Source of the DNA: a virus
Taxonomy: Duplodnaviria; Heunggongvirae; Uroviricota; Caudoviricetes
DNA length: 64,000 bases
Direction: 5' to 3' (one strand)
Virus record (IMG/VR): IMGVR_UViG_3300027963_000034
Location: 58,552-122,551 of that record
The translations under genes and the position numbers were made by a program. Under the pieces are notes generated by a model, which saw nothing but the letters and a program-made list of their open reading frames with translations, had not been told where the DNA came from and made no database searches. Shown piece by piece: positions 1 through 18,862 of the stretch; the first letter of the stretch is position 1; the number at the start of each line of letters is the position of its first letter.

Positions 1-503
1 ACATCCTTTTTAGTTGGAGGTGTGATTGCAAATGATTGGCACCTACTTTGTATCGGGTCAATAATCTTCTCAATGTAATTACAAGTCAAAATGAATCTAC
101 AATGTTTAGAGAATGTTTCCATTAAGTTACGAAGGATTGCCTGTGCGTTTGGGGTCATATAATCAAACTCATCTAAAATGATAATTTTGAAACCTGCAAA
201 ACCAACTGATGATGCGAAATTTTTAACTTTTGTTCTGACGGTATCCACATTATTTTCATCTGATGCATTGATAATCATACTATCACATTTAATTGTATTT
301 ACTATTAGTTTAGCAAGTGTGGTCTTACCAGTGCCTGCTTTACCATAAAACAACAAATGGGGAATATCATTTGTATCTAAATATTGTTGAATAGTTTCTT
401 TTACCACTTCATTTCCAACATAATCTGCTAAAGTTTGTGGGCGGTATTTTTCCACCCACAAGCTATGCTCTTTTTTATTATTTTCGTTTGCGAAAAAACT
501 CAT
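1..503 (-). CDS. Sliding-clamp loader ATPase subunit (T4 gp44/RFC small subunit-like), 3' end outside window
   Basis: Not in ORF track. Manual translation from ATG at 503 gives MSFFANENNKKEHSLWVEKYRPQTL, Walker A GKAGTGKTT, INASDE and Walker B ILDEFD. Confidence 0.93.
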   Translation of the reverse strand, partial: MSFFANENNKKEHSLWVEKYRPQTLADYVGNEVVKETIQQYLDTNDIPHLLFYGKAGTGKTTLAKLIVNTIKCDSMIINASDENNVDTVRTKVKNFASSVGFAGFKIIILDEFDYMTPNAQAILRNLMETFSKHCRFILTCNYIEKIIDPIQSRCQSFAITPPTKKD

Positions 504-504
504 A

Positions 505-927
505 TTATATATATTTTCCAGTTGAGCCGAATCCACCTTCGCCTCTTTCTGTATTAGATAATTCTTCTACCTCTTCAAAATCAATTTCAGGATAAGGTAT
601 AATCATAAGTTGTGCACCTCTTTCTCCGATATTGTATTTATTTAAACCAGATTTTTTAAATGTAGCTTGTAACTCACCTCTATATCCACTATCAATTACA
701 CCAACGGAATTACTAAGTGTTAAATCGGTTTTACGAATGGAAGATCGTGGAAATACTAATCCTACAAATCCTTTTGGAATTTCAATTGCAATACCAAATC
801 CATATGTAATATCATATGTATTTTCTAATTTGATATCCGTTATAACCAAATCCATACCCGCATCTCCATCTTTTGCATATGATGGAATTATTGCGTTTTT
901 ATTAAGCTTCTTTATTTTTACTTTCAT
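505..927 (-). CDS. dut: dUTPase (trimeric)
   Basis: Motifs AGMDL, PRSS, GVIDSGYRGE, AQL, RGEGGFGSTG. Likely start MKVKIKKL at 927 rather than 996. Confidence 0.95.
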   Translation of the reverse strand: MKVKIKKLNKNAIIPSYAKDGDAGMDLVITDIKLENTYDITYGFGIAIEIPKGFVGLVFPRSSIRKTDLTLSNSVGVIDSGYRGELQATFKKSGLNKYNIGERGAQLMIIPYPEIDFEEVEELSNTERGEGGFGSTGKYI

Positions 928-1207
928 TTTGTTCTGCTCTTTGTTTTTTTGTTTCTTCTGTAATTTGTCTTGGGAAGATTCTAAATACCATTTCATTTTG
1001 TTGGAAATTCAATCCTTCACCTTGATTTGGTTCTAATTGTAAAGTCAAAGGACTAGGTTCTTCACCTTCATTTGACCATGCAAATACAATTGGTTCGTTG
1101 TTAAAAAATTGGAAACACCATTCTGCATCTGCAATAGGTTGTGCTTCTGGAATATTTACCTCTTGTTGTAATTCCTCTTGTGGGAATAATTCTAATTGTT
1201 CACTCAT
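902..1207 (-). CDS. Hypothetical protein
   Basis: 101 aa ORF, ATG start, promoter-like motif directly upstream. Confidence 0.7.
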   Translation of the reverse strand: MSEQLELFPQEELQQEVNIPEAQPIADAEWCFQFFNNEPIVFAWSNEGEEPSPLTLQLEPNQGEGLNFQQNEMVFRIFPRQITEETKKQRAEQNESKNKEA

Positions 1208-1222
1208 TTTTATTTATTTTAT

Positions 1223-1254
1223 TTAATATACGATTATTTTTTTAAAATACCAAG
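1223..1254 (-). promoter_or_regulatory. Bacteroidota sigma70-type promoter (-33/-7)
   Basis: Minus strand CTTG-N20-TATATTAA upstream of ORF starting at 1207. Confidence 0.55.
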
Positions 1255-1986
1255 CTTTTCTATGTGATTATACAATCTTTGAGCATATTCTTTATTTTCT
1301 AAATATGTTGCGTGTTGGTGTGTATCTTTTAGGGGAGGATAATTTCCATCGAATCTATTTTCATCTTTATAATCAGTTCCCACAAATGTCCCATTCCATA
1401 AAAATGGTATACCCATATCTTTTAAATAATATGTAATTAATAAATGGTTTTTATACCAATTCATTAAATCATTTTGTTCGTTTGAAGAACTTACGATACC
1501 AGCCCATTCTAGTCTACCTTCTCTATCTTCATCAAAATATCCCCAAGGGTTTGGATGATATGGTTCTATTCCACCATTTTCAGTATAATATTCCTTTTTA
1601 TTTGGGTAAGTATACATAATTAAAATCAAATCTGGTTTAAATTCATTTGCGTATGTTAAAACACTTCTAGCTATATAATCATTACTCCTACCACTAATTC
1701 CTAAATTAATATCAACAGAATTGGATATTAATGATGATAATTGCGCCGGCCAGGTTTGGTGGTCATATACATCTATACCTTCGGTATGAGAACAGCCAAC
1801 ACTCATTATTTTAAATCCTTTCTTTTTTGGAGAAGCTCCCCTAAATCCTAATTCATTAAAATTATATGTAGCCTTTCCTTTATCGGAGCCATTTCCAATA
1901 AATTCTTTATTTCTTCTTTCATGTAACCTCCATTTGAATGTTGCAATATCAAATGTTAATGGTTTCCAAAACTTTAATCCTTTCAT
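1234..1986 (-). CDS. SGNH/GDSL-hydrolase-like protein
   Basis: GCSHTEG (block I-like), NLGISGRSN (block II-like), C-terminal DTHQH. Confidence 0.6.
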   Translation of the reverse strand: MKGLKFWKPLTFDIATFKWRLHERRNKEFIGNGSDKGKATYNFNELGFRGASPKKKGFKIMSVGCSHTEGIDVYDHQTWPAQLSSLISNSVDINLGISGRSNDYIARSVLTYANEFKPDLILIMYTYPNKKEYYTENGGIEPYHPNPWGYFDEDREGRLEWAGIVSSSNEQNDLMNWYKNHLLITYYLKDMGIPFLWNGTFVGTDYKDENRFDGNYPPLKDTHQHATYLENKEYAQRLYNHIEKLGILKK

Positions 1987-1988
1987 AA

Positions 1989-4544
1989 TTAAAAACTAAA
2001 AAACTTTTTTGCAGTTTGAGCTTCAGTTGATGCTTTTTCCCATTTTAATGCGGTATAAAAATCATCTAACTTATTTTCTAATTCTGCTTTAAATATCATA
2101 TCTCTATCAATATATTTTTCAATAAAATCCATAATCTCATTAGGGTCATTATAATCTTTAAAAGCCAACCCTTCTAATCCTAATGGGTTATTTCTTAAAT
2201 ATACCCACTTAACTTTATCACCATCTCTAATTGGTTCATTCTTAAATGGACAATTAAAGAATTTTAATAATCGGTTATATGCAATTCCGGCTTTAACATG
2301 GGCAGGTGTTCCTTTCTCAAATAACCCAACAGGCTTACCTCTTTCCCATTTACCATTATCATACTTACTTAATTCTTTGATTGCTCCACTCTTTGCTATT
2401 TTGTTTACAGGCAAAGTAATCATACTCTTTTTGAACTCTAATAATTTTGTATCAACATATTCATTATCTTTACCCATAAGAATATCTTTCAACATACCAC
2501 TCATATAATCTTGGAATGCTTTGGGAAATGATGAACGAACTACATCTAAACCTTTAACATCTAACTTATCACATTTGATGCCATTCTTTAATACCATCCA
2601 TTGTGCATATCTTTTCTTTGCTACCCAAAATCCCGCTTTACTGATATATTCCTTTTTGATTTCAAATCTATGTTTTTCTTTTGGTATAAAAAAGAATCTT
2701 TCAGCAAGTATATCATAAAATTTATTTAAAAAAGATTGAGTTTCTTCTGCTATTATATTAACTTCCTGTGCCATTCTTTCTTCATCAAATTCTTTATATT
2801 CTGGGTATCTATGCTTTACCAATGGTTCTGCCATCATATAAATTGAATCAGTGTCAATATACACATTGTAATCTTCTTTTGTATTTAATTCTTTCCAATA
2901 TTTTATATTAGCCATTTCAGCCGTTTTTTTAATAACCGTCTGACCGGTAATAGTAACTGCTTCGGCGTTATCTATATCATAAAAACGAAATGCCGGTAAA
3001 CCTAACACACCATACATTGAGTTCAATAGAATTTTTTGTACCAATTGTCTTTTTGCGTAAAAATCATATTTTTCAGTATCACCTGCTTCTCCGTATTTTT
3101 TTTCTAACTTACGGAATTCAACTCTTTGTTTAAACCATGTATCTAAAATATCTGCAATCAATCCGGGTTTGTCTTGTGTATAAAGAACTCCGTTTGCAGC
3201 TACACCCAAATTACTATCTTTAATAACTTCTTTTAGTTCCTGAGTCGTATATTCGTATTTATCACCATCCTTGCCAATTAACTTATAAGTTGTATCTAAT
3301 CCTTTGATGTTTGCCTCTGCGTCCCAATTTTCAATCTTACCAACCTTTGTTTCAGGTGAGATGTTTAGAGTCATAATAATTGATGGATATAGTGATGTTA
3401 AATCCAAATCATAAATCCAATCATACTTTCCAACAATCGGTTCTTTTACATATGCACCGATAAACTTCTCCTGGTCGTTATCTCTCAATGCTTGCATTCT
3501 TTCTTTTCTATCCTTTGGTTTATTTGGGGCTACTAATCCTTTTTTCTTGAGATATGCTAAACAAGCTCCTTCTAAATATTTTGAAGAGTATATATAATCC
3601 TCGTATGGTACAAATCCGGCGTGACAAATCGCTCTACACAAATCTACGAATTGAAGTTTTTCATCCATTGCTACAACTAAGTCTACATCGACAATATTAT
3701 ATTCAATAAACTTTTCTAAGTCATTTTCAAACAAATCATCCAAACTTCCTTCATACTCAATCTTACCTCTACCCAATTCTTTTGTTGCGATGTGGTTCAA
3801 TGTATATGAACTTTCTAAACCATAATTATAGTTTTTATATAAGTTGATATAATCTAAAATAGATACACCACCAAAACTCCATTTATTTCTATAAGGTGAA
3901 TAAAAGGTTTGACCTATTGGAGATAATCTTTTTGCATGACCTTCGCCACATACATTTTTGATACGATTGTAAAGATATGGGATATCAAAGAAATCTATAT
4001 TCCATCCTGTAAGAATAGACGGGTTAATTTCTTCGTAATAGTTAAGAAATGCAAGTAATAAATTTTTCTCGTTATCGTAAATGTGAACAGCAACTTCTCT
4101 CCCATCTTTACTAAATGTTTTTCCATTATTTTTAATTTTTTTAGTTTTATCTAAAACAAATACATCAAATAATTTTGTAGCCCCATCGTGAGATGCGATG
4201 GCTGTTATTTCATTTTCTGCTTTTTCGGTACTTGGTAGTCCTGATATCATTTCTACCTCAATATCAAAAGTCATTACTCTATGACCTGTTGATGGTAAAT
4301 CCGAATCATACATATCAACTAATACTCTCGTTGTTTCAGGAACATCAGATTCAAATAAATCTTCTGCGTCATCTTTTTCCCATTTACTAATTCTAGTTAA
4401 ACGGTCACCATTCATTGAAAGGTGTTGACCCGATTGGTCTTTCTTATACGCATACTTTCGGTATGGTAATGTAAAATATCCCTTCGTGTCGTCCCATAAA
4501 TGAATTAAATTCTTCTGCCTCTCGTAAAATATATTTTGATACAT
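1989..4544 (-). CDS. Family B DNA polymerase (T4 gp43-like)
   Basis: Exo motifs FDIE, GWNIDFFD, YNIVD; Pol motifs DLTSLYPS, KILLNSMYG, YIDTDS, KKRY. Confidence 0.97.
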   Translation of the reverse strand: MYQNIFYERQKNLIHLWDDTKGYFTLPYRKYAYKKDQSGQHLSMNGDRLTRISKWEKDDAEDLFESDVPETTRVLVDMYDSDLPSTGHRVMTFDIEVEMISGLPSTEKAENEITAIASHDGATKLFDVFVLDKTKKIKNNGKTFSKDGREVAVHIYDNEKNLLLAFLNYYEEINPSILTGWNIDFFDIPYLYNRIKNVCGEGHAKRLSPIGQTFYSPYRNKWSFGGVSILDYINLYKNYNYGLESSYTLNHIATKELGRGKIEYEGSLDDLFENDLEKFIEYNIVDVDLVVAMDEKLQFVDLCRAICHAGFVPYEDYIYSSKYLEGACLAYLKKKGLVAPNKPKDRKERMQALRDNDQEKFIGAYVKEPIVGKYDWIYDLDLTSLYPSIIMTLNISPETKVGKIENWDAEANIKGLDTTYKLIGKDGDKYEYTTQELKEVIKDSNLGVAANGVLYTQDKPGLIADILDTWFKQRVEFRKLEKKYGEAGDTEKYDFYAKRQLVQKILLNSMYGVLGLPAFRFYDIDNAEAVTITGQTVIKKTAEMANIKYWKELNTKEDYNVYIDTDSIYMMAEPLVKHRYPEYKEFDEERMAQEVNIIAEETQSFLNKFYDILAERFFFIPKEKHRFEIKKEYISKAGFWVAKKRYAQWMVLKNGIKCDKLDVKGLDVVRSSFPKAFQDYMSGMLKDILMGKDNEYVDTKLLEFKKSMITLPVNKIAKSGAIKELSKYDNGKWERGKPVGLFEKGTPAHVKAGIAYNRLLKFFNCPFKNEPIRDGDKVKWVYLRNNPLGLEGLAFKDYNDPNEIMDFIEKYIDRDMIFKAELENKLDDFYTALKWEKASTEAQTAKKFFSF

Positions 4545-4552
4545 ACATTGTT

Positions 4553-6124
4553 TTATGGTTTATAAAATATAAAGATTGGTTCGTATTTATACGATTGCCC
4601 TTCTATCTTCATACTATTCTTTGCTTTTGATAAATCCATCCCCGTCATTGGACTCATTGTCATTCTTAATTTTCCTTTATATTCACATCCTAATTCAGTT
4701 AGGATATCGATACTATCTTGCTCCAAAGTAAAAAATTTATCAGGTCCTACTTTTATATCAGCAATATTCCAGCAAATGTATCTATCATTTTTAAGATATT
4801 CAAATGCGGTTGTTAGAGTAGGTCTTAAAAAGCCATCTCTCCAACTTTCATATGAATTAAATTTCTTAAAAGATTGCGTTTCATCATCCGAATATCTTTC
4901 TCTATCAAAATATGGTGGTGAAGTAAATACAAAATCTAATTTACCTTTATACTTTTGGAATCTTTCATCTAAATGAATAATTTCCGAACCTGTTGTAAAA
5001 ATTTCATAACTATTTGCATGTCCCCAAAATGGGTTTGATGCTCCAGGTACTTTATTATTAAAAAATTCTGCAAGATATTCGTATCTAGTTTTACCAATTT
5101 CAGGTATTTGATTTTCTGTATTAGGGTCATTTCCTATGTAATGTATATTCCTATCATCGACACTTAATGCACCTAAAATTCTCCCACCCCATCCAGCCGA
5201 TGGGTCGTAAATATTAATCTGCTTTTGGTCTTTAATATGATTTGTAAATCTTTGATAAAGATATTTTGCAGTTAATGGTGGAAAATTTACTGCTGCTTGC
5301 GTTCCCATACCAATACGGAATGCCGCAGTAGCTTCAGGAAATATAGTTTGTCCTAATGGGTAGATTTTAATTTGAATTGGTTGTTTTGTAATCTCATATA
5401 AATTATCAATATTTTCACCCCAATCTGCGGTTTTAAGTGACGATATATTTTCATATTTTAATATTCCCGCTTTATAAAGGTCTTTAACTTCTTGCGCGGT
5501 TATTGGTGGTGAAGGAACTTTACTATCAGCCTGTGATAAACAAAATGAATGTCCTTCCAAATTATCACCTTCTACCCACTTTTCAATCCACTCTTTACCA
5601 CTTTGTATATGTGAATTATGAAATTCAGGATTACCCAAATGTAATGTTTTAGAAAAACGATACATACCATCTTGCCTAGTTAACCTATTCATTTGTTTGA
5701 TAAATTCGGGAAGATACGCATCATTCGAAAACACATCGTAAATAGATGGTTTTGGTTTATCGTAAGTAGAACCACCGATTCCTGTTTTATACATTGCAGG
5801 AAAGAATTGATTTACAGGAGTAGCAAATTTATTAAAGTTAAAGATGACTTCATTTCCTTCGTCATCTTTTTCTTCAAATTCATTTACCTTATAAGTTTGC
5901 AGTCTAGAAAATTGTTCAATCATTTCACTTTCATCAACCCCAATTCTTGGAGGTGCTCCGGTTTCATTCCATTTTCTAACTGCTAATTCACGAAAGAATG
6001 CCACCCACTCTCCAAACTTTGGAAATGGCATTTTAAGAACATCCTCGTATTTTAAGTTTACTTCTGGAGAGTAAATCCAATCGTTCTTTTCGTAAAAATA
6101 TTTTTTAGGATAATTAAAACTCAT
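4553..6124 (-). CDS. DNA amino-methyltransferase-like protein (N4-C/N6-A type), paralogue 3
   Basis: Motif I YDPSAGWGGR, motif IV FTSPPYF, NIAD, C-terminal YEPIFIF. Confidence 0.8.
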   Translation of the reverse strand: MSFNYPKKYFYEKNDWIYSPEVNLKYEDVLKMPFPKFGEWVAFFRELAVRKWNETGAPPRIGVDESEMIEQFSRLQTYKVNEFEEKDDEGNEVIFNFNKFATPVNQFFPAMYKTGIGGSTYDKPKPSIYDVFSNDAYLPEFIKQMNRLTRQDGMYRFSKTLHLGNPEFHNSHIQSGKEWIEKWVEGDNLEGHSFCLSQADSKVPSPPITAQEVKDLYKAGILKYENISSLKTADWGENIDNLYEITKQPIQIKIYPLGQTIFPEATAAFRIGMGTQAAVNFPPLTAKYLYQRFTNHIKDQKQINIYDPSAGWGGRILGALSVDDRNIHYIGNDPNTENQIPEIGKTRYEYLAEFFNNKVPGASNPFWGHANSYEIFTTGSEIIHLDERFQKYKGKLDFVFTSPPYFDRERYSDDETQSFKKFNSYESWRDGFLRPTLTTAFEYLKNDRYICWNIADIKVGPDKFFTLEQDSIDILTELGCEYKGKLRMTMSPMTGMDLSKAKNSMKIEGQSYKYEPIFIFYKP

Positions 6125-6843
6125 TATGCAGTTAATTGTACTTCAACTAAATAATATTTTGCAGTAAAGTCATCAATTTTAAATTCAACGTGGGCTAGGC
6201 CAGATGTTGAAACTTTCAATACAACCGATGTTGCTTCTTTATTTGCTGTTAAAATTTCTTTTAAGTATTTTGCTGAAAAAGAAATTGGTTTAATTTCGTT
6301 TGTAAAACTCTTATCAACTGAAAATACAATTCTATTTGAGTTTACATTTGAATAACCTAATACAATTTTTAATTCACCATTCTCGGTTAAGACAGTAAAT
6401 GTATCAACTTCGCTTAATGCGTTTTTAGCTTTGATGAACTTTTCAATAAACTTACCATCAAATCCAATGTTTACATCGAAATCAGGAAGTTTTTTCAAAT
6501 CCGGAACCGAAGGGATTACTGCTAAATCCGCTAATTGAAATTGTAATTTAGTGTCATCACTTTTAATTACTAAATTAACCGATTTGCCATCAATTTGTTG
6601 AGTTTCTAATTCAATATCATCACCGGCTACCGATAATAACTTTGATAACGCAGATGTGGTATACACACCCAATTCTGGAGATGTAAATGTGAAATTATCT
6701 AATTCAATTTCACCTAAAACTGTCTTATCATCAGAGATAAAACGAGTTATTAATTTGTTATCACCTGCTTTCCAAGCAACTGATTCTACTAATCCTGCCA
6801 AACTATACTTTTGGATGAATCGTGTAACTTTTGTTTTGTTCAT
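6124..6843 (-). CDS. Sliding clamp (gp45/PCNA-like)
   Basis: 239 aa, two-domain size, FSAKYL and C-terminal AKYYLV similar to PCNA/gp45; near PolB and the clamp loader. Confidence 0.75.
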   Translation of the reverse strand: MNKTKVTRFIQKYSLAGLVESVAWKAGDNKLITRFISDDKTVLGEIELDNFTFTSPELGVYTTSALSKLLSVAGDDIELETQQIDGKSVNLVIKSDDTKLQFQLADLAVIPSVPDLKKLPDFDVNIGFDGKFIEKFIKAKNALSEVDTFTVLTENGELKIVLGYSNVNSNRIVFSVDKSFTNEIKPISFSAKYLKEILTANKEATSVVLKVSTSGLAHVEFKIDDFTAKYYLVEVQLTA

Positions 6844-6871
6844 ATTTTTTTGTTTTAAATTTTATGTTTGT

Positions 6872-6903
6872 TAAATATACTACTTTTTTTTTATAATACC
6901 AAA
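6872..6903 (-). promoter_or_regulatory. Bacteroidota sigma70-type promoter
   Basis: Minus strand TTTG-N20-TATATTTA upstream of clamp gene. Confidence 0.65.
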
Positions 6904-8121
6904 TTATATTTTTTTCCAAATCCAAATGGGTTCACCAAATGCATTATTTTTATTGAGTTCTGTTTTTTCTTTAAGTTCTTCTGCAAAATATTCAGATTTA
7001 GCATTTCCTGCACCGCCGGAATTAAACCTTTTTGTCATTTCCATTCCAATACAACCCATATATTCTAATCCCTCTGATTTAATAAAGTCATTCATAGCAT
7101 TTACAATATCAACATACCCCTTATCTGGTGCTGAAAATACATCTGCAATATTAACGGCTAATAACCCACCCTTCTTTAAGGTAGGGATTATTTTTTTAAT
7201 TGTTTTATGTAGGAAATTAGTATTCCAGTCATCTATCTTTTTATAGCGTAAATAACTTTGAGTATCATGTGTGGAATACTTTTCAGTATTGAAGTATGGA
7301 GGTGAAGTGAAGATTGTATCAAAAAAGTTTTCATATTTGGAATAATCCACATCTTCTGCCGGTAACTTTATTAGTTCCACAGTTTTAGGATTTTCAAAAA
7401 ATGTTTTGTGTTTCTGATAAAATTCTATTTGGTTTTCATAATTTGGGTGATTATCTAAATTAGGGTCAATGCCCACATAATGTTTACCCGTTTCACTTGC
7501 AAAGAACCCACATAACCTATCACCCCAACCTGCGGAAAAATCTAATACATTCTCACTCTGAAATCTGTCATAAAATGCTTTAGCGATTACAGGTTTAAAT
7601 TGGGATGCTACATACTTTCTTAATGTAGTAGCCATCTTTAGTGTTTCCTTATTTACATCAGTTAGGACTTGTTCCAATGTGAAGAATGCCCGAACTATGG
7701 TTTTTATACCATTAACTGTCTGCCATGTCTTCCAACCTGATGGTGTTCTTGACCAATCTACCTTCCATCGATTTTCTATGTGGAATGGATTAGATGCGTT
7801 ATTACCAACATTCGTTCTTTTAAAATAGTAATTACTACTATCAAATGTAAGTGGATATGTAGATTCCCTTTCATTACGCGGAAACCATTCTCCTTCCACT
7901 AAAATATCCGGCCACCAAGTACCCTTTAACTTTTTATATGCATCAATAGTTTCTTGTTCTGTAATAATAGGAATAGGTGGTGGATAAGTATGTAATACTT
8001 CTGATAATGTTTCTACTATCTCTTCCTTTTCAAATGTATTTAGTATATGTTTCCACTCCTCCTTATCAATATTGATATAGGGGGTCATTCCATAAAACTT
8101 TTTGAAATATTCTTTTATCAT
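6904..8121 (-). CDS. DNA amino-methyltransferase-like protein, paralogue 2
   Basis: SQFKP, LDFSAGWGDR, GIDP, FTSPPYF, NIAD, EPIWIW. Likely start MIKEYF at 8121. Confidence 0.82.
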   Translation of the reverse strand: MIKEYFKKFYGMTPYINIDKEEWKHILNTFEKEEIVETLSEVLHTYPPPIPIITEQETIDAYKKLKGTWWPDILVEGEWFPRNERESTYPLTFDSSNYYFKRTNVGNNASNPFHIENRWKVDWSRTPSGWKTWQTVNGIKTIVRAFFTLEQVLTDVNKETLKMATTLRKYVASQFKPVIAKAFYDRFQSENVLDFSAGWGDRLCGFFASETGKHYVGIDPNLDNHPNYENQIEFYQKHKTFFENPKTVELIKLPAEDVDYSKYENFFDTIFTSPPYFNTEKYSTHDTQSYLRYKKIDDWNTNFLHKTIKKIIPTLKKGGLLAVNIADVFSAPDKGYVDIVNAMNDFIKSEGLEYMGCIGMEMTKRFNSGGAGNAKSEYFAEELKEKTELNKNNAFGEPIWIWKKI

Positions 8122-8125
8122 TAAA

Positions 8126-9355
8126 TTATATTTTTCTCCAAATCCAAACCGGTTCACAAAATGTTTTATCTGCAGCTTCTCTTGCTTTTTCTAAAGCCTC
8201 TTCGGTATATCTTCCTTCATCACCTTCTATTATTGAGGCAGCTCCTGCACTACCAGGTCTTTTGGCCATTTCCATACCCAAACATCCTTCATATTCAGCG
8301 CCTAATGTTGAAATAAAATCATTCATTGGGTTACATATTTCTTTATATCCCTTACCATCTCCTTGTGAACTAGCGTATACATCTGCTATATTAATGGCTA
8401 GATATCCTCCTTTCTTGATTGTTGGCCAAACATTTGAAATTGCTTTATGTAAAAATAATTTATTCCAATCATCTATATTTTTATATCTTACCCAACTTTG
8501 AGTATCATCATATGAGTATCGTTCTACATTAAAATATGGAGGTGAACTGAATACAATATCAAAATGCTCATTATACATTGATAAATCGGCATCTTCCGCC
8601 GGTGATTCTATAAAATCAGCTTTCTTTTCAGTTTCAAAAAATCCATTATGTTTTGTATAAAACTCAGCCTGTTGTTTATAAATTGGATGATTTTCTTTTC
8701 TAGGGTCTATCCCAACATAGTGTTTGCCCTTTTCACTGGCAAAAAACCCACACATCCTATCTCCCCAACCTGCCGATATGTCTAATACATTTTCACATTC
8801 TAAATAATCATATAAAGCTTTCGCAACATTAGGTTTAAATTGAGAACATATATACTTTCTCAAACTTAAACATACTCTCAAAGCTGCTTTATCTATTTTA
8901 TCAAATTTAAGAGTATATAATCCACCCATTAAAGTTGTCATGAATTCTTTACTTTCCCAAGTTCTTTTAGGACCTGGAGAAACTGTCCCATCAACACTCC
9001 AACGATTTGCTTGTTGAAAAAAATTAGATGCTTCATTTCCAGTATTTAATCTTCTAACATATTGTTGTTTACCTCTAAATGATAGAGGATAATTACTTTC
9101 TGATGCTTTTCTTGGAAACCATTCACCTTCGGTAAATAATTCATGCCATCTCGTTCCTTTTAATTTAAGATATTCTTTTCTGGCTTCATCCTCGGTTATT
9201 TCAGCATATGGTAAAGAATATTCCATACAAACATCAGATAGTGAATCTTTTACATCTTCCCTATTAAATGTTTCTTTTATATATGACCACTCACTCTCAT
9301 TTATATGAAGGTATGGTGTCATATTTTTAAATTTATCAAAATATTCTAAATACAT
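8126..9355 (-). CDS. DNA amino-methyltransferase-like protein, paralogue 1
   Basis: SQFKP, LDISAGWGDR, GIDP, FSSPPYF, NIAD, EPVWIW; colinear with the adjacent paralogue. Confidence 0.82.
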   Translation of the reverse strand: MYLEYFDKFKNMTPYLHINESEWSYIKETFNREDVKDSLSDVCMEYSLPYAEITEDEARKEYLKLKGTRWHELFTEGEWFPRKASESNYPLSFRGKQQYVRRLNTGNEASNFFQQANRWSVDGTVSPGPKRTWESKEFMTTLMGGLYTLKFDKIDKAALRVCLSLRKYICSQFKPNVAKALYDYLECENVLDISAGWGDRMCGFFASEKGKHYVGIDPRKENHPIYKQQAEFYTKHNGFFETEKKADFIESPAEDADLSMYNEHFDIVFSSPPYFNVERYSYDDTQSWVRYKNIDDWNKLFLHKAISNVWPTIKKGGYLAINIADVYASSQGDGKGYKEICNPMNDFISTLGAEYEGCLGMEMAKRPGSAGAASIIEGDEGRYTEEALEKAREAADKTFCEPVWIWRKI

Positions 9356-9873
9356 ACTGTCTCAATATTTTTATCAGCAACCAATCTTAATCTAAAAACT
9401 ATTCCAGGAATAACTCCATCTTTTTTACTTGTCCAAAATATATCAGAATCTTTTACAAATCCATTTCTATAATAGAAATTAACTGCTTTATCATTATACT
9501 TCCTAACCGTCAAAAACAAATTTTCTGCATGTTGTGATTTACAATATTGTATAAAATCATTTAAAACTATTTTAGCGTTTCCATTGTGTTGGTCTATATT
9601 CGCAATTTGATGCAATATATAATCTCCTTTCTTTTTATAAGTAGTAGCGTTTCTACTCATTTTACCATTACTACCATATCTACCAAAGGTAACCACAACA
9701 CCATCTTGTAGTATTAATCCACCTTTTTCAATATATTTTTCCAGCTTAAAACTTTGTTTATACAAGTGTGGAAATATTTCTGGATACAAATCAATAATTG
9801 TAGAGGCTTGATTTAATGCCTCTATCATTTCAGTTGTACCTTTTTCTGCTTTTATAAAATTAAGCATATTCAA
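9346..9873 (-). CDS. GNAT-family acetyltransferase
   Basis: LHQIA...QHNGNAK (motif A-like) and LTVRKYNDKAVNFYYRNGF (motif B). Confidence 0.8.
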   Translation of the reverse strand: MNMLNFIKAEKGTTEMIEALNQASTIIDLYPEIFPHLYKQSFKLEKYIEKGGLILQDGVVVTFGRYGSNGKMSRNATTYKKKGDYILHQIANIDQHNGNAKIVLNDFIQYCKSQHAENLFLTVRKYNDKAVNFYYRNGFVKDSDIFWTSKKDGVIPGIVFRLRLVADKNIETVCI

Positions 9874-11317
9874 AAAATTTATTTAAGTTTAATTTGTCTT
9901 TATACAAATATAAGGAATTTAATTGAGATTTCAAAATATCTTTTCTAGCTTCCATCATATCACCAGTTCTTGCACCTTTTGCAAAAAATACTTTTGGTCT
10001 ATATAATAATTCATCGGAAATCTCACCTTTGAATGCTGCTCTTAATAATGGTTTCATATGACCATTTTCTTTCTGATATAAAGGTGGAATGTTTAAAGTA
10101 TATTCTACAAATGGTCTCCAACTATATGGTGTACGAACCTCAACAGTCCCACCCCACATGATAGATTGATTTGTAGTTAAGAAATTTGTTTTATGAACAT
10201 CTTCTACTAATTTTCTTCTAGCTTTATCATAATCTTCCGGTCTCCAATGGAACGCTTGAATATGTCCGTAACTTCCCCAAATTTCATCGGATAAATCACC
10301 GCTAAATACAACTTTGAATCCTAATTCATTTATTTTTTTACCCAATGCAATTTGAGCTATAGCAGAACCTACATTTTGCCAACGAGATTGTTCAATAACA
10401 TAAAGAGTTTCATCAATCGAATCTAATACATCTTGTTCGGTTAGTATAATTTCATGCAATTTTACACCGAATTCTTTTGCAGCAATTCTGGCGTATTTAA
10501 TGTCGTCGTTCTTTGTATCACCATCTCCCATTGAAACCACAAATGCTTCAATATTAGGGTTTATTTTTGAAAGTATATAAGTTGTTATCACCGAATCAAT
10601 ACCCCCACTTAAAATGGTGCAAATTGGGACATCAGATATCATTTTAACTTTAACCGCTTCCTCTAATAATTTTCTTATATTCTTAACAATAGTGTCTCTA
10701 TCATCATTTATAATTTCATTTGGAAGTTTATAATAAGTTTTAATTGAATGTTCTAATGTTTTATAATTGTATTCTATATAAGTTCCAGGATAAACTGCTT
10801 TAACTTGTTTTTCATACAATTCCGATATTGGTAATCCTTTCTTTTCCGAACAAAACACCAATTTACCAGTATTATCAATTGCATACCATAATGGTAATTC
10901 TCCAACATAATCTCTAACAACAAATACTTTATTAATCTTACTATCAACTATACAAAATGAAAACATACCATCCAATAGTTCAAATGATTTAGTTCCCAAT
11001 TCACAATACGCATTTAATATAATTTCCGTATCTGATTTTGTTATAAATTTTGTTTTTAGTGATTTTTTTAATTCAGTTGTTTCGGTACTATCCCAAAGTT
11101 CACCATTATAAACAATACAAACGGTTTTATCTTCGTTCCACATTGGTTGATTTGCAGCCGAAGATAAGTCCTGTATTGATAATCTATTATGTCCAACAAA
11201 GACACTATCTATTTCATCTACAATAGAAGCATCTCTACCTCTATGAATTATTTTATTTAATTGGGTATGGGTTTGCTCAAAAGAAGTAAACCAATTACCA
11301 CCTATTATTCCACACAT
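9860..11317 (-). CDS. asnB: Asparagine-synthetase-B-like glutamine amidotransferase
   Basis: N-terminal MCGI (Ntn Cys), HRG, HNRLSI, NGEL, SDTE, PP-loop LSGGIDS, SGDLSDE, EVRTPY. Confidence 0.88.
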   Translation of the reverse strand: MCGIIGGNWFTSFEQTHTQLNKIIHRGRDASIVDEIDSVFVGHNRLSIQDLSSAANQPMWNEDKTVCIVYNGELWDSTETTELKKSLKTKFITKSDTEIILNAYCELGTKSFELLDGMFSFCIVDSKINKVFVVRDYVGELPLWYAIDNTGKLVFCSEKKGLPISELYEKQVKAVYPGTYIEYNYKTLEHSIKTYYKLPNEIINDDRDTIVKNIRKLLEEAVKVKMISDVPICTILSGGIDSVITTYILSKINPNIEAFVVSMGDGDTKNDDIKYARIAAKEFGVKLHEIILTEQDVLDSIDETLYVIEQSRWQNVGSAIAQIALGKKINELGFKVVFSGDLSDEIWGSYGHIQAFHWRPEDYDKARRKLVEDVHKTNFLTTNQSIMWGGTVEVRTPYSWRPFVEYTLNIPPLYQKENGHMKPLLRAAFKGEISDELLYRPKVFFAKGARTGDMMEARKDILKSQLNSLYLYKDKLNLNKFFEYA

Positions 11318-11321
11318 ATAA

Positions 11322-11353
11322 CTAATTTACGAAAAATAATTGGATTTACCAAC
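11322..11353 (-). promoter_or_regulatory. Bacteroidota sigma70-type promoter for the asnB-GNAT-MTase unit
   Basis: Minus strand GTTG-N20-TAAATTAG ending 4 nt before the ATG. Confidence 0.5.
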
Positions 11354-11616
11354 TATTTAATTGCTTCATTTATCGCATTTACATACGCTATTTTAGATGA
11401 AAGACCACTAAATCTTTGTAACTCAATTCCATTTTTTTCAATTATCACAGTCGGTACTGAACGAACTCCGTATTGTTCCGTTACTTCACTATACTCATCA
11501 ATATCGTATTCTTCAAATTTTACATTTGAAAAATTACCTTTAATTTCATTCATTACCGGTGCTAATGCTCTACAAGGACCACACCATACTGCGCTAAACT
11601 TTTTGACTGTTACCAT
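11353..11616 (-). CDS. trxA: Thioredoxin
   Basis: WCGPC active site, VRSVPT cis-Pro motif. Confidence 0.95.
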   Translation of the reverse strand: MVTVKKFSAVWCGPCRALAPVMNEIKGNFSNVKFEEYDIDEYSEVTEQYGVRSVPTVIIEKNGIELQRFSGLSSKIAYVNAINEAIK

Positions 11617-11800
11617 TTTCTTTTTGTTTTATATTTTTATTTTCTTTTATATGTTTTGGTTCATAAGGACAATGACGGCACTTATTACCACAACAATAAC
11701 CTCTTGCCATATGATACTCTGGTGTAAATACCACTTTACCATTTTCCAAATAGTATAATGTTTCATCTTTATTATTTAACTTCACACGCACCTCCAGCAC
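11594..11800 (-). CDS. Small Cys-rich protein (DUF5522-like)
   Basis: VFT..YH..RGYCCGNKCRHCPY; GTG start overlaps the nrdJ 3' end and its exact position is uncertain. Confidence 0.7.
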   Translation of the reverse strand: MLEVRVKLNNKDETLYYLENGKVVFTPEYHMARGYCCGNKCRHCPYEPKHIKENKNIKQKENGNSQKV

Positions 11801-13628
11801 AAGCTACTTCTCCTGATAAATCGGTGTTATCTTCAAGTTCAATAACTTTACTTAAGTCAACATCATTTAATGTTTTCATTAGTTCATCATACTTTTCTTT
11901 TGTACAATCTTCAAATGGTGCTTGAATGTAAGTTCCACCGTCGTAAGGTAATACCGAAAGTCCGTTGTAATATTCTTTATTTTCCCACATCCACGCGCCA
12001 ACTGCATCCCATTCATGTTCTCTAATAGAAATAGTTGCAGATACATTATGAGAGTTATTTCCAGTTCTATGACCTGGTTTAATCCATTCACCATGTACTC
12101 TTTTAACTCTTTCCAATAATTGGATAGGTGATTCGGTTCTAAAAATTGCGTTATCTGGTGCTTTTTGTGGAATACCAATTACTGCCGTATCATGTGGTCT
12201 AAAATATTCATCTTCTACTAATTCTGGATGATTTAATAATAAGTGAGAATATATTGATTCATTTTTACCAACTCTAACTCTTCTAATATAAAAATCATTA
12301 TGCCAAGCGTGAATACCACTACTAGTCCCCAATGTTAAAGATGTAGTTCCAGCTGGTTTAACTGTCGTAGTTCTTGCGGAATGGTTAATTCCCATTATAT
12401 CCGCTAATCTTTTATTTTCTTCTTTAACTACCTTTGCTGCATCTTTCATATTTAATTTCAATACTGCGCCGCTTCCGATGCCTGTCATAGATACACCAAT
12501 AAGTGCATCCTTTTCAGTTGTTCTTTGCCAGATTGGACGAAGGTAATGGAAATCGGTATAACCTGCTTGTAATGTTCCGATGAATGATGCTGCTTTAACT
12601 CTTGCATTCAAATCATCCTGGTCAACTACATCACTTACATTCACTTCACATAAGTTACAAAATTGGAAAGGTCTTAATGCAATCTCACAACAAGGATTAG
12701 TTCCCCAATCTTTATCATTTGATAAATAGATACCAGGTTCACCTGCACCACTTGCTTCAATTCGTTTCCAAAGGTCTAAAAAATATGTTTTTGTAATTTT
12801 ATGTCTCATCAAAACTGCTGAATTATTTGCTCTACCTCTTTGTGGATTTGTTTCCCACCATGCACCACTCTTACAACTAATCATTTGTTCGTCATTTGCA
12901 GAGAACAATGAAATTAATGCAGCTCTACGGATACCACCTGCTAATACTGCATCTGCAATATGACAAATGATATCATGCACTTCAATCGGTTTTAATTTAT
13001 CACCGTCTTTGTGTGAATCAAATATACCTTCAATCTTAATCAAGCATTCTTTTAATGGTTGAGGTCCTGGTGCTTTACCACCTGATGTAATCAATCTTGC
13101 ACCCTTTGCTCTAATATCTCTAAAATCAAATTGAGGTTTGCTCCCGCCAAAGAAATACGCTTTAATCAATACCGAAACTGCATCAGCCCATCCTTCGATA
13201 GAATCTCCAATAAGGAATCTTCTTGTTTTATCTGGATTTGGTTTTCTAATTTCAGGAAGTGCATCAACGTGATGTTTTTGTACTGAATAACCAACACCTG
13301 TTCCGCCTAAAAGTAAGAACATGATTTCAGAGAATACTCTCCAATCATCGGCAGGTGCAAATGCACAATTGTAAATTCTATTTGGACTAATTTCAATTGG
13401 TTTACCTGCAAACTGCATTGAACGCATTGATGGTAATACCTTTTTATCATATACAAATTTATAATTCTCTCTAATTTCTTCTTCTAATTGTGGGTACTTT
13501 TTAATATGCATATCCATATTACGGGTAACCAACTCTTCCCATGTTTCTCTTCTTTTTAATTCCGGCCTGAATTTCGCGTACTTCATATAGACCGTAATGT
13601 CAGATAAAATTCTTTGTGAAATGTCCAT
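11772..13628 (-). CDS. nrdJ: Class II (adenosylcobalamin-dependent) ribonucleotide reductase, monomeric type
   Basis: NCAF, GGTGVG, GGIRRAA, TNPCCEI, TTVKPAGT, C-terminal ACAGGACE; no NrdB partner. Confidence 0.9.
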   Translation of the reverse strand: MDISQRILSDITVYMKYAKFRPELKRRETWEELVTRNMDMHIKKYPQLEEEIRENYKFVYDKKVLPSMRSMQFAGKPIEISPNRIYNCAFAPADDWRVFSEIMFLLLGGTGVGYSVQKHHVDALPEIRKPNPDKTRRFLIGDSIEGWADAVSVLIKAYFFGGSKPQFDFRDIRAKGARLITSGGKAPGPQPLKECLIKIEGIFDSHKDGDKLKPIEVHDIICHIADAVLAGGIRRAALISLFSANDEQMISCKSGAWWETNPQRGRANNSAVLMRHKITKTYFLDLWKRIEASGAGEPGIYLSNDKDWGTNPCCEIALRPFQFCNLCEVNVSDVVDQDDLNARVKAASFIGTLQAGYTDFHYLRPIWQRTTEKDALIGVSMTGIGSGAVLKLNMKDAAKVVKEENKRLADIMGINHSARTTTVKPAGTTSLTLGTSSGIHAWHNDFYIRRVRVGKNESIYSHLLLNHPELVEDEYFRPHDTAVIGIPQKAPDNAIFRTESPIQLLERVKRVHGEWIKPGHRTGNNSHNVSATISIREHEWDAVGAWMWENKEYYNGLSVLPYDGGTYIQAPFEDCTKEKYDELMKTLNDVDLSKVIELEDNTDLSGEVACAGGACEVK

Positions 13629-13792
13629 TGTTTTGTGTAAATTTTTAATTTTTGTGAATAAATATTTTCCCTAAAAAAGTGGGAAATGTAAAGATATATA
13701 TGGAGTCTACCCCCATTATGCTTCAATTTCTTTAGTTAATTTTAGGTTTTTTTTAAAAATATTTATTAACACTTTTTTTATTTTTTTAATAC

Positions 13793-15151
13793 TTATCCCA
13801 TATTCTCTACATACTTCTTATGTAGTAATTTTTTCTCTAATCCTTCTCCATTTTTACTATCTCTAGTTGATGCCATACCATCTATTGATGTCGCTGCAAA
13901 CACATCCATTGTACCTGTAAATGTATCAATTTTTGCAGGGAATGTTAAACCATCAGGACCAAATCTATTTTTAACGATGTGAATACGGCCTGTGTTTGAT
14001 AATTTATCTTTAGTCTTTCTACTCACACTCATAATGAAATCTGCAGTTTGTACTTTCTTATATGAATCACCTACCGAATCCGCTCCAATAACTTCGTGGT
14101 CTATTGCTGCTCTATTCGTTTGTGTTGCTGTCCAAACCGGGATAAGTGTTTCACCACTCAAACCTCTTAACTCCTCATATATCCCACCTAATTCAGCATA
14201 AAGACCATCCCTGTTGCCATTTCCACTCTTTAATAAATCCGCGTAATCAATAATGATAAGTTTTGGTTTAAATCCGGTTTGTTTTATCTTTTCAATATGA
14301 GCTGCAATTGTTTTAGCAGATGCAAATTGTGGTGGATAATACTTAATACGAACTCTACCTGGAACTTGCTTTACCTTTCTGATAATCTCATCCTTTCTAT
14401 CTTTTTGGTCAGTTGTTGGGATACCTGTTAAGATTGTAATGTATCTTTGTCCTACATAACTTTCTGATAATTCCAATGTATAATGTAATACATCAATACC
14501 TCTTTCCAATGCAGAACAAGCTATTTTAGATAAGAACCAACTTTTACCGATACCCGATGGAGCCATTACTACTCCCAATTCACCGGGGCCTAAACCGCCA
14601 TCCATTAATTCATCAATTACTTTCCATCCAGTAGGACAAGAATCTCTTTTAACATTTTCTAATATAGTTTCAAAATTTTCAATAAAATCCAAACCTAAAT
14701 CAGATTCAACACCCACTTTGGATGCCTTCATCATTGTATCTATAATTTGTTCGTATTGTCCGTTTTTAAGTAAGTCTACCGATTTGAATAATGCTTCTTT
14801 AACCTTTTGGTTTTTACAAAATGTTAAATACTCCTTTTTTACATACGGCATATCTTCTGCACCAACCTGTAAATAAACATTCTTTAATTGTTCTACTACC
14901 GTCTGTTTTAATCCCTTATCCTCTATTCCCCCAACTTTAATTTTAAACACTTCCATTGTAGGAACTGCTCTATACTCATCAAAGTAATGTTGGACTTCAC
15001 CTATAATCCATTGGTTTGCTTGAGATTCAAAAAATGCAGGTTTTGTAATTTCACCGACTTGTTCTAAAAATTTAACATCCGTGATAAGTGCAGCTACAAC
15101 TTTAGATTGATAACTCTGGCCATATTTGACGAGTGTATCTACTTCTTGCAT
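13793..15151 (-). CDS. Replicative DnaB-like helicase (T4 gp41-like)
   Basis: APSGIGKS, LELSE, IIDYADLL, TATQTNR, KNRFG. Confidence 0.93.
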   Translation of the reverse strand: MQEVDTLVKYGQSYQSKVVAALITDVKFLEQVGEITKPAFFESQANQWIIGEVQHYFDEYRAVPTMEVFKIKVGGIEDKGLKQTVVEQLKNVYLQVGAEDMPYVKKEYLTFCKNQKVKEALFKSVDLLKNGQYEQIIDTMMKASKVGVESDLGLDFIENFETILENVKRDSCPTGWKVIDELMDGGLGPGELGVVMAPSGIGKSWFLSKIACSALERGIDVLHYTLELSESYVGQRYITILTGIPTTDQKDRKDEIIRKVKQVPGRVRIKYYPPQFASAKTIAAHIEKIKQTGFKPKLIIIDYADLLKSGNGNRDGLYAELGGIYEELRGLSGETLIPVWTATQTNRAAIDHEVIGADSVGDSYKKVQTADFIMSVSRKTKDKLSNTGRIHIVKNRFGPDGLTFPAKIDTFTGTMDVFAATSIDGMASTRDSKNGEGLEKKLLHKKYVENMG

Positions 15152-15360
15152 TACTTATCTTTTTTCTTTTTGCTTAATTGTTTTTCTGCGATTGTTTTTT
15201 CTTGTACTTCTACAACTATTTCTACTTCTTTTTTAGCAGGCCTTCTATCTGCTTTCCACTCACTTTTTGGAATAAACTTCCATTCACTTGTTGCGTTGTA
15301 AGCTTCTTTATCACTTACTCTAATAATGTTTCCTGTTTTTGTACTTTTAAGACACTTCAT
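15151..15360 (-). CDS. Small basic hypothetical protein
   Basis: 69 aa ORF translationally coupled to the helicase (TAATG). Confidence 0.65.
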   Translation of the reverse strand: MKCLKSTKTGNIIRVSDKEAYNATSEWKFIPKSEWKADRRPAKKEVEIVVEVQEKTIAEKQLSKKKKDK

Positions 15361-15382
15361 TGTTGACCTCCATGTTTTTATG

Positions 15383-15709
15383 TTATCTAATAACCATTAA
15401 TAATTCTGATTCTCTTAATAGAAGGTATTTATTACCACCTACTTTAATTTCTACTCCCTGATGATATGGTGGAAGAATTACCTCATCACCTACTTTTACA
15501 CTCATTGGAATTGCTACACCAGCTTGTGTGAATAATCCATCACCAACTGCTTCTACTTTTGCTCTTTTTACATCTTCTGATTTTGCACTATCCGGAATAA
15601 TAATTCCATATGCAGTTGTTGAAGCTTCTGCTTCGATTTCCGTTAGAAGAACTCTATCTCCTAGTGGTTTTGCTAACTTGTCTGCCACGCTTTCTGTTAC
15701 TTTTGCCAT
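15383..15709 (-). CDS. groES: Co-chaperonin GroES
   Basis: KPLGDRVL, GIIIPDSAK, VEAVGDG, VKVGD, LLRESELL. Confidence 0.95.
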   Translation of the reverse strand: MAKVTESVADKLAKPLGDRVLLTEIEAEASTTAYGIIIPDSAKSEDVKRAKVEAVGDGLFTQAGVAIPMSVKVGDEVILPPYHQGVEIKVGGNKYLLLRESELLMVIR

Positions 15710-15716
15710 AACTTTT

Positions 15717-16775
15717 TTAAAATTTATTTATATGTGAAAATGTTGATTGTAACCAATCATTTATATCTTTAAACCCATCTAAAACTCCATTTTTTAAACT
15801 CGTTTTTAAGAAACTTTGTTTATCAAACTTTGCAGTTGGTTCGTTATATCTATCCATAATTTTCATTCGAAGATTACCACTAAATGTTGGTTCTGCTAAC
15901 TGCATCAATTTACGATTTCTTTCGCAAATTTCCAAATTATTTAAGAATAATTCATGTGCTTTTGATTTTTTAGGTAATGTATTTACATAATTAACCATAT
16001 CGGTAGTATCAACTAATTGGTGTTCTACTAACATTGGAAATGCTTTTATAATTGATTTAATACCTAACCCGTTAATACCTGCAACATTGTCGGATTTATC
16101 TCCGTCAATCATTCTGAAATTTATAAAATTATGTGGATGAATACCAAATTCCTCAACTACTTCTGGAATATTATATATTTTCTTCTTTGATGGTGAATAT
16201 ACACTTACATCTTTATTTACTAATTGAAGAAAATCCTTATCAGAGCTCATTATTACAACCTTTTCGTTTTCTTGTCGTAGGGTTGTAGCAATATAAGCCA
16301 TAACATCGTCTGCTTCAATTCCATCATAAATCATAATGGAAACGGGTAATGATGAAAGTAGTTCACCCAATGCAGACATTTGTCTTTTCATTGAGGCACT
16401 CTCTTCTTCTGGATTCATTTCAATAGTTGCAGCTCGATTCAATCTCATTTTGATTTTGTTCTTACCTCTCTCCGATTTGTAACCAGAATATATGTCTTGT
16501 CTGCTTTTGTTTCCACCCTTACCATCGAATACTATTACAACTCGTGTTGGGTTAATTGTACGGATTGCAAAGCCGATACTTTTTAAAGTACCGACTATGC
16601 CTCCAATATGGTCACCATTATCGTTAAGATTTGGTGCTGTTGACCAAGAACGAATGAAGGTATTAAGACCATCAATAACTAAAGTTTTTGAATTTCTTTG
16701 CAAATCTCCAAATCCTTTATGTTCTTCATCTATTTGTTTTAGTATATCTAAATACTTCTTATTAATCTGACTCAT
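15717..16775 (-). CDS. 5'-3' exonuclease / flap endonuclease (T4 RNase H-like)
   Basis: IDGLN, VFDG, YKSER, EADD, SSDKDFLQ, GDKSDN, G.GIK H3TH. Confidence 0.93.
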   Translation of the reverse strand: MSQINKKYLDILKQIDEEHKGFGDLQRNSKTLVIDGLNTFIRSWSTAPNLNDNGDHIGGIVGTLKSIGFAIRTINPTRVVIVFDGKGGNKSRQDIYSGYKSERGKNKIKMRLNRAATIEMNPEEESASMKRQMSALGELLSSLPVSIMIYDGIEADDVMAYIATTLRQENEKVVIMSSDKDFLQLVNKDVSVYSPSKKKIYNIPEVVEEFGIHPHNFINFRMIDGDKSDNVAGINGLGIKSIIKAFPMLVEHQLVDTTDMVNYVNTLPKKSKAHELFLNNLEICERNRKLMQLAEPTFSGNLRMKIMDRYNEPTAKFDKQSFLKTSLKNGVLDGFKDINDWLQSTFSHINKF

Positions 16776-17868
16776 TTGCTTCGTCCGTTGTTACTTCAAC
16801 TTCATCCGAATTGGAATTGTTCTTGTATAATAATATTGTTGCCTCACAAATCCTTACATAGATTTGGTCTTTTAGTTCTTGATTTTCAAGCATCTTTGGA
16901 AAATCCTTTGATTGAAACTTCATAACTTCGCCACTATCAATGTCGATGTATTCATACCAAGCTCCTGCTTGCTTTACAATTTTGGCGTCTTTCATTACTG
17001 CTAACCATCCACCATAATTGTCAATACCTCTATCAAAGAAAATGTCAAAGTCTGCATGTCGTAATGGTGGGCCCATTCGGTTTTTAATAACCTGACAACG
17101 AACTTTGATACCTACGATTCTATCACCGGCTTTAAGTTGGCCCATATTCTTTAATCTCAATCTAACCGAAGCATGAAATGCAAGTGCTTTACCACCGGAT
17201 GTTGTCCAAGGGTCACCGAACATTGCGTTCATTTTCTGTCTTAATTGATTTGTGAATACTAATGCAATTGATTGACGACCAATCATATTGGTAATCTTTC
17301 TCATTGCTTTTGAAATGATAATTGCCTTATCAGTTGCGTAACCATCTTTATCGTAATCGGCTTCCATCTCTTTCTTTGAAGATGCTGCTGCTACTGAATC
17401 GACTACAATTGTAACTAATCTATCTTTGTCTCCTGTTCTAACCTTTTCAATAATTGTTTCACATGCTTCAAAAATACCTTCGACGGTGTCAACTGAAACA
17501 TATAATAGTTTTGAAATATCTACTCCGATTGCTTCTAAATATTCTCTACTTACCGCAGTTTCGGTATCAATCAATACGGCTACTCCACCTTTACGTTGTG
17601 TTTCCGCAAGAATATGAGCGGAGAGCAGAGATTTTCCACTCTGCTCTAAACCCGTAATCTCACATATACGTCCAACCGGGAAGCCACCATAAGGTCTATT
17701 AGAGATTGCAACATCCAACATAGCATTACCAGTTGAAATCCAATCTTTAACATTGGTAGGAGCATCACCACCTTCATCAGTTAGAAAGTAGGCAATCTTA
17801 CCATCCTTATTTTGTTTGTTTAATGAATCAGCAAGAATACTTGCTAAATCCTCTTCTCTTTTGGCCAT
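16762..17868 (-). CDS. recA: RecA/UvsX recombinase
   Basis: GLEQSGKS, IDTE, VVDSVAA, FTNQLR, SGGKAL.FHASVR, KNR, QAGAWY. Confidence 0.95.
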   Translation of the reverse strand: MAKREEDLASILADSLNKQNKDGKIAYFLTDEGGDAPTNVKDWISTGNAMLDVAISNRPYGGFPVGRICEITGLEQSGKSLLSAHILAETQRKGGVAVLIDTETAVSREYLEAIGVDISKLLYVSVDTVEGIFEACETIIEKVRTGDKDRLVTIVVDSVAAASSKKEMEADYDKDGYATDKAIIISKAMRKITNMIGRQSIALVFTNQLRQKMNAMFGDPWTTSGGKALAFHASVRLRLKNMGQLKAGDRIVGIKVRCQVIKNRMGPPLRHADFDIFFDRGIDNYGGWLAVMKDAKIVKQAGAWYEYIDIDSGEVMKFQSKDFPKMLENQELKDQIYVRICEATILLYKNNSNSDEVEVTTDEANESD

Positions 17869-17881
17869 TGTAACCTAATTA

Positions 17882-18730: not shown

Positions 18731-18827
18731 TGTTTTTTTGTTTTTAAGGTTTAAAATTTGTTTTTAAAGTTGAGGTTTATATCGCGATATTCCTATATCT
18801 AAATATAACTTTTTCATCTTTTATTAC

Positions 18828-18861: not shown

Positions 18862-18862
18862 T

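Follow-up and report, generated by a model that had tools for sequence, protein, structure and literature searches.

Why a DNA polymerase and a glutamine amidotransferase encoded in the same phage replication module should end in nearly the same short peptide is a question raised by a 64,000-nucleotide stretch of the viral record IMGVR_UViG_3300027963_000034 (positions 58,552 to 122,551; hereafter the window). Here a T4 gp43-like family-B DNA polymerase (PolB) ends AQTAKKFFSF, and an AsnB-like glutamine amidotransferase/synthetase (AsnB) ends LNLNKFFEYA. A first-pass annotation of the window had read these two ends, together with aromatic pairs inside three methyltransferase-like proteins (M1, M2 and M3), the end of a flap endonuclease (FEN) and the start of a clamp-loader subunit, as sites through which the modifying enzymes ride the sliding clamp and act on nascent DNA. 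The comparison with related phages shows that the K-F-F tail is a portable module, found on the polymerase and otherwise only on DNA-modifying enzymes. On sequence grounds it is probably a clamp-docking peptide of this phage group that resembles the PCNA-interacting protein (PIP) box, carried by the polymerase and AsnB, and in sister lineages also by a GNAT acetyltransferase and by methylases.

The terminal peptide of AsnB and PolB

The comparison set consisted of 80 IMG/VR loci with 1158 coding-strand open reading frames (ORFs), and AsnB and M1 were in addition compared with the 120 closest database proteins. Across these sequences the end of AsnB is always [N/K/D/Q]-K-F-[F/W], followed by 1-4 variable residues. 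In 52 distinct AsnB sequences (65-100% identity) the lysine and the first phenylalanine are invariant and the second aromatic residue is phenylalanine in 73%, with tryptophan in the remainder, while the flanks of the motif are variable (entropy 1.2-2.5 bits). The K-F-F codons vary synonymously (AAA/AAG, TTT/TTC), and selection on the tail is therefore at the protein level. Nucleotide-level causes of the motif, such as an overlapping start or a slippery run, were rejected in view of these synonymous codons and of the differing downstream contexts.

The AsnB end had been described as an extension not expected in a metabolic enzyme, which is not correct, as the C-terminus is ~80 residues shorter than that of E. 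coli AsnB (residues 20-466 of 485 align to residues 23-472 of 553). After the homology ends at residue 466 the phage enzyme carries a lineage-specific tail of 19 residues, and the alignments place the conservation island of this terminal segment beyond the apparent limit of the catalytic-domain homology. The PIP box of PCNA partners is Q-x-x-[LIM]-x-x-[FY]-[FY], and the window sequence K-L-N-L-N-K-F-F contains the L-x-x-F-F half of it; the AsnB tail can thus be described as PIP-like, judged by its residues, and not as a canonical PIP box. One locus (L080, 10001-11539) encodes a divergent AsnB of 516 amino acids in a phage whose FEN, DnaB, clamp and M1 are otherwise ~80-88% identical to those of the window. 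No GNAT was detected at this locus, and a replacement of the AsnB gene inside the cluster seems to have taken place.

All 31 distinct PolB relatives keep the terminal K-F-F-x-F unchanged, after ~10 columns of variable linker (entropy 1.4-2.7 bits). The nearest polymerase found by tblastn, that of Microcystis phage Mel-JY01 (49% identity, T4-like polymerases being at ~30%), ends LSKFFNFK. Read directly, the T4 tails are SLDFLFG in gp43 and SLDFLYEAND in gp55. The T4 gp43 sequence EKASLDFLFG is the gp45-binding peptide, and further gp45 partners make use of its LDFLF core, among them T4 ligase, which has it in a flexible loop inside the protein (PMC6212786). The conservation of the PolB end and the homology to gp43 bear out the first-pass assignment of this peptide to the T4/RB69 clamp-binding kind, and by its position (A/S)-x-K-F-F-x-F is the presumed clamp-binding peptide of PolB, an ordinary and safe conclusion by analogy. 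In some relatives PolB is split into 2 or 3 ORFs (PolB region of L070, L071, L072 and L076), and a 525-amino-acid ORF with a GIY-YIG domain in these phages ends SEKFFRFN, a picture suggestive of insertions of the homing-endonuclease or intein type in their replication genes.

Distribution of the tail and its candidate receptor

The scan for tails in the 80 loci used a terminal F[FWY], which is looser than KFF. This pattern ends 76 of 78 AsnB proteins, 44 of 50 PolB proteins and 25 of 72 GNAT proteins, and none of the ribonucleotide reductase (RNR), DnaB, dUTPase, RFC, clamp, FEN and M2 proteins; the matches in M3 belong to a terminal core strand and not to a tail. The tail is also absent from ~595 unrelated neighbouring ORFs. 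All remaining [KQN]FF-tailed ORFs are PF01555 DNA methylases (E-values 1e-19 to 1e-44) or a GIY-YIG fusion, and a phmmer sweep of the loci found 13 canonical PF01555 methylases, each with an FF pair at or within ~10 residues of the C-terminus. The COG0863 methylase of Mel-JY01 has no tail, though the PolB of the same phage does.

The GNAT of other lineages can end LQLEKIKSEKFFQF, AEKFFTFN, EKFFSFD or KKFFTCS, which is almost the PolB tail; in sister lineages the ends EKFFQF and KKFFTCS are near copies of it. GNAT proteins with PolB-like tails are encoded at L122-L123 (G005:C1, 20975-27382) and also at L047-L067. The GNAT of the window has no tail; it ends NIETVCI, and the 3' end of its gene overlaps the start of M1. 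On one 31-kb contig four adjacent genes are tagged, namely those for an M1-like methylase (QNFFSF), AsnB (KKFWDA), GNAT (KKFFTCS) and PolB (EKFFSF). Genome-wide, in two CheckV-complete relatives (209 kb with 224 genes and 274 kb with 352 genes), KFF tails occur only on PolB and AsnB. The presence of the tail on GNAT and on bona fide methylases of relatives gives the clamp-riding idea evidence that the first-pass annotation lacked, and that interpretation now appears, from these sequences, partly supported.

The candidate receptor is a protein of 239 residues, which had been taken for the sliding clamp. Its identification is confirmed by its fold: in a Foldseek search with an AlphaFold2 model built from 11 homologues (predicted local distance difference test, pLDDT, 79.9), the top matches were all PCNA, with an E-value of 2.6e-12 and template-modelling scores of 0.6-0.73 over the full length. 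By sequence alone the signals are weak (Pfam PCNA_C at an E-value of 3e-4, hmmsearch against the PDB at an E-value of 2, and hhalign against T4 gp45 at 18% probability). According to the fold search on the model, this clamp looks more PCNA-like than gp45-like. The clamp gene adjoins PolB in Mel-JY01 too.

Internal loops, other proposed sites and the genomic setting

All the strings quoted in the first-pass annotation exist where it had placed them. KKFFSF of PolB corresponds to nucleotides 1992-2009 and NKFFEYA of AsnB to 9863-9883, while HNGFFE of M1 (residues 236-241) lies at 8633-8650, HKTFFE of M2 (residues 250-255) at 7393-7410 and SNPFWG of M3 (residues 363-368) at 5021-5038. The C-terminus of FEN is SHINKF, and MSFF of the RFC-like ORF (nucleotides 492-503) stands at the ATG which relatives use as the start.

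The proposal that the aromatic pairs inside M1, M2 and M3 are clamp boxes does not hold. The M1 loop was judged from secondary structure and pLDDT: in the AlphaFold2 model (pLDDT 84.6) HNGFFE sits in a nine-residue loop (236-244) between a helix (220-235) and a strand (245-249), and the pLDDT of 91-93 in this block indicates that the loop is a well-ordered element of the Rossmann fold. Across 120 homologues any of F, M, W, L and V can occupy the first aromatic position of the loop, and HNGFFE is without the K-F-F context. The TFFE of M2 is kept in 13 close homologues, and M2 itself is absent from many related loci. M3 is a distant paralogue with SNPFWG at the same loop, which is deleted in M3-like paralogues of 351 amino acids. 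Since the three proteins are paralogues that align at this loop, their internal FF pairs count as one event. The C-termini of the methylase-like proteins, EP[IV]W[IV]WxK, form a core strand. The clamp-binding loop of T4 ligase is long, disordered and carries the polymerase-tail motif, and the M1/M2/M3 loop, which is short and ordered, is unlike it.

The terminal NKF of FEN, also proposed as a clamp site, is not conserved, and relatives end IAKF, ISKF, IIVK, LITD, LHK or NKLN. Just before this variable end, at 15717-15760 (minus strand), there is a conserved W-L-[QK]-[ST]-T-[FY]-x-x-[IL]-[IN]; the spacing of this segment resembles that of a degenerate PIP box, and the segment may be a better candidate clamp site than NKF. 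The start of the clamp loader is MSFF, MAFF, MFEF or MFEY in most loci, MNNSEH in a few and MKRKEN in Mel-JY01, and in these alignments the MSFF start would count as partly conserved.

The window covers the replication module of a low-GC aquatic (marine) phage of the T4 superfamily that has not been cultured. Its GC content is ~31%, its large ORFs are all on the minus strand, and positions 1-19,000 constitute the T4-superfamily replication module (Table 1). In DNA sequence the window has no close relative among cultured phages. Aquatic metagenomes contain many members of the AsnB and M1 families, carried on contigs as long as ~297 kb, and AsnB-GNAT-M1 is a conserved core beside PolB, clamp and RFC in the 80 loci. 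The gp32-like single-stranded DNA-binding protein (SSB) of the window ends AFDDLFNN and that of Mel-JY01 EFDDLFNKD, a conserved acidic-aromatic tail of the usual partner-binding kind. Two further conserved ends occur in the window: a baseplate-hub protein (34582-35403, minus strand) has a terminal G-x-x-F-F-[YW]-P in all relatives and in Mel-JY01, which is unrelated to the K-F-F tail, and a 100-amino-acid protein (19758-20060, minus strand) has a basic, tryptophan-rich end, KKKKWYQ[IF]WKK.

Table 1. Genes of the replication module, in window order
Feature	Position	Strand	Evidence or remark
RFC-small/gp44-like clamp-loader subunit	3-536 (ORF); probable start gives 3-503	-	phrog_168, E-value 5e-63; cut by window edge
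dUTPase	between RFC-like ORF and PolB		replication module
SGNH-like protein	between dUTPase and PolB		replication module
gp43-like family-B DNA polymerase (PolB)	1989-4544	-	Pfam DNA_pol_B and exo1; phrog_262, E-value 1e-180
M3, methyltransferase-like	4553-6124	-	Pfam N6_N4_Mtase; phrog_12517
PCNA-fold sliding clamp, 239 aa	6124-6843	-	AlphaFold2 and Foldseek; weak Pfam PCNA_C
M2, M1 paralogue	6904-8157	-	52% identical to M1
M1, SPPY methyltransferase-like	8126-9355	-	class I methyltransferase fold (AlphaFold2); Trm11-like top matches
GNAT acetyltransferase	9346-9873	-	Pfam Acetyltransf_1
AsnB-like glutamine amidotransferase/synthetase	9860-11317	-	Pfam GATase_6/7 and Asn_synthase
RNR, DnaB-like helicase, GroES	between AsnB and FEN		
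FEN/RNase H-like 5' nuclease	15717-16775	-	phrog_107
UvsX	after FEN		replication module
gp32-like SSB	17882-18730	-	

Proposed clamp docking, its rivals and its meaning

The arrangement in T4 and RB69 is the closest parallel for the polymerase. Both gp43 and the window PolB are homologous family-B polymerases with a conserved hydrophobic or aromatic peptide at the extreme C-terminus, and in T4 nearly the same peptide occurs on several gp45 partners (gp43, gp55, gp33 and the ligase loop), at a variable distance from the end. The peptide differs, however, being K-F-F(-x-F) here as opposed to LDFLF or the RB69 form, and here the clamp is PCNA-like and the additional carriers are DNA-modifying enzymes instead of transcription factors or ligase.

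In eukaryotes the binding of DNMT1 to PCNA couples methylation to replication. The phage tail shares with PIP boxes the terminal hydrophobic-x-x-F-F core and the PCNA-fold clamp, and with DNMT1 the logic of tethering a methylase to that clamp. The differences are that the glutamine is missing or shifted (PolB has it at -5, the window AsnB has none), that the setting is a bacteriophage and that an amidotransferase and a GNAT are among the carriers. In the literature no paper was found that reports motifs for clamp binding in DNA methylases or amidotransferases of phages.

CmoY, an AsnB homologue, amidates 5-carboxymethylcytosine in the DNA of cyanophage S-B43, and a CmoY-related subgroup that bears a glutaminase domain is uncharacterised (PMC12783734). 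CmoY is thus a precedent for AsnB-family enzymes acting on DNA. It shares with the window AsnB the AsnB-family synthetase domain and a location near methyltransferase-like genes in a large aquatic phage; the window enzyme also has a glutaminase domain. In contrast to the CmoA/CmoX/CmoY system, the neighbours in the window are SPPY proteins of the amino-methylase type and a GNAT, with no SPPC C5-cytosine methylase, and CmoA (the Cx-SAM synthase, TIGR00740) was not found in the two complete relatives. Both points led to rejection of the window cluster as a CmoA/CmoX/CmoY system for 5-carboxymethylcytosine. Extension of the tail to S-B43 was also rejected, the CmoX, CmoY and gp43 tails not being alike.

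In the proposed mechanism the AsnB copy of the tail (hydrophobic-x-K-F-F/W, 1-4 residues from the end) would tether AsnB to the clamp left on new DNA. In sister lineages the same tail would tether GNAT and ordinary DNA methylases to the clamp, and the modification pathway would act at or just behind the fork. GNAT, M1, M2 and M3 of the window, which are untagged, would act untethered or through AsnB. The comparison shows the motif, its conservation, its limitation to the polymerase and DNA-modifying enzymes, and the PCNA fold of the clamp; that the clamp is the receptor of the tail and that DNA is the substrate of AsnB are both points that we infer.

Several observations weigh against this mechanism. 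The AsnB tail departs from the canonical Q-x-x-[LIM]-x-x-[FYW]-[FYW], the glutamine at -6 being absent from the window AsnB and present in only some relatives (QINQNKFF), and the L080 AsnB (42% identity) ends KKFTNV, with a single phenylalanine. In the window itself AsnB is the sole non-polymerase carrier of the tail, and in the two complete relatives other expected clamp partners (FEN, late sigma factor and ligase) are without it. The arrangement is not general, as CmoX, CmoY and the annotated gp43 of S-B43 have no common tail. Finally, residue frequencies give an estimate of ~0.5-0.8 [KQN]F[FW] tails per genome by chance.

This last estimate belongs to the suspicion that an AT-rich genome whose proteins abound in K, N and F simply yields terminal KFF strings that were matched after the fact. 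Phenylalanine makes up 4.4% and lysine ~7% of the residues in the window, and an FF pair within the last 12 residues, expected in ~1 of its 51 ORFs, is seen in 3 (PolB, AsnB and the baseplate-hub protein), which is not significant alone, so that window-only statistics were rejected as support. PolB and each methylase-like protein hold 3-5 FF pairs anyway, and matching after the fact does seem to describe the internal pairs, the end of FEN and the start of RFC. The tails of PolB and AsnB, however, stand above chance because they are conserved across relatives and restricted to DNA-acting enzymes: K-F is invariant in the 52 AsnB sequences in spite of divergent flanks and synonymous codons, and the tail recurs independently on GNAT and on at least three methylase types but not on unrelated neighbours. 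Composition is therefore already disfavoured as the explanation, and we regard it as very improbable. Hardly more probable is a role of the tail as a degradation, localisation or packaging tag, for instance in protease recognition or in targeting to a replication compartment. Short C-terminal hydrophobic tags do serve such roles elsewhere; against this, the tail is present on the essential replicase of every lineage, the tagged proteins coincide exactly with the DNA-acting enzymes, and no structural or internal virion protein has the K-F-F form.

A more serious competitor, though still an unlikely one, is that the tail docks on another hub (the gp32-like SSB, a helicase or a modification scaffold) or serves self-association or active-site gating, and that PolB merely has a similar peptide. 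In AsnB-family enzymes the C-terminal segment is close to the synthetase site. Moreover, at the distant locus L082 (401-2373) AsnB, 50% identical to that of the window, ends NTLEDLFD and the adjacent GNAT NTFDDLC, a different common tail that is like the end of the window SSB, which shows that the recruitment tails of these enzymes need not have the clamp as receptor. The L082 contig ends before any polymerase gene of that phage. When covariation of the AsnB and PolB tails was sought in a lineage with a different motif, the AsnB ending TLEDLFD (P0244) was on a 6.7-kb contig without PolB, and P0271 was on a 1.9-kb contig; scans of IMG/VR and metagenome contigs found no longer relatives. What speaks for the clamp over such a hub is that the tail shares its core with the peptide at the end of the polymerase, and in T4/RB69 the peptide at the homologous position is the one that binds the clamp. 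DNA methylases that stand alone, away from the AsnB cluster, have the tail as well, which argues against a pathway-internal scaffold or an intramolecular role specific to AsnB.

Under the clamp-docking reading, the PCNA-like clamp would act as a tool-belt to which the polymerase-derived K-F-F tail recruits AsnB, GNAT and methylases for replication-coupled hypermodification, a proposal that we consider about evenly balanced. If true, it would be a prokaryotic-virus counterpart of the DNMT1-PCNA interaction, and docking of the tail on the clamp would provide a mechanism for modifying phage DNA fast enough to escape host nucleases, with the enzymes travelling with the replisome. It would also be independent evidence, drawn from sequence alone, that DNA and not metabolites is what the AsnB-like and GNAT enzymes of this widespread marine cluster work on, which would narrow the search for base modification in the cluster. 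A polymerase-like tail could then flag DNA-acting enzymes in these phages and serve as an annotation marker.

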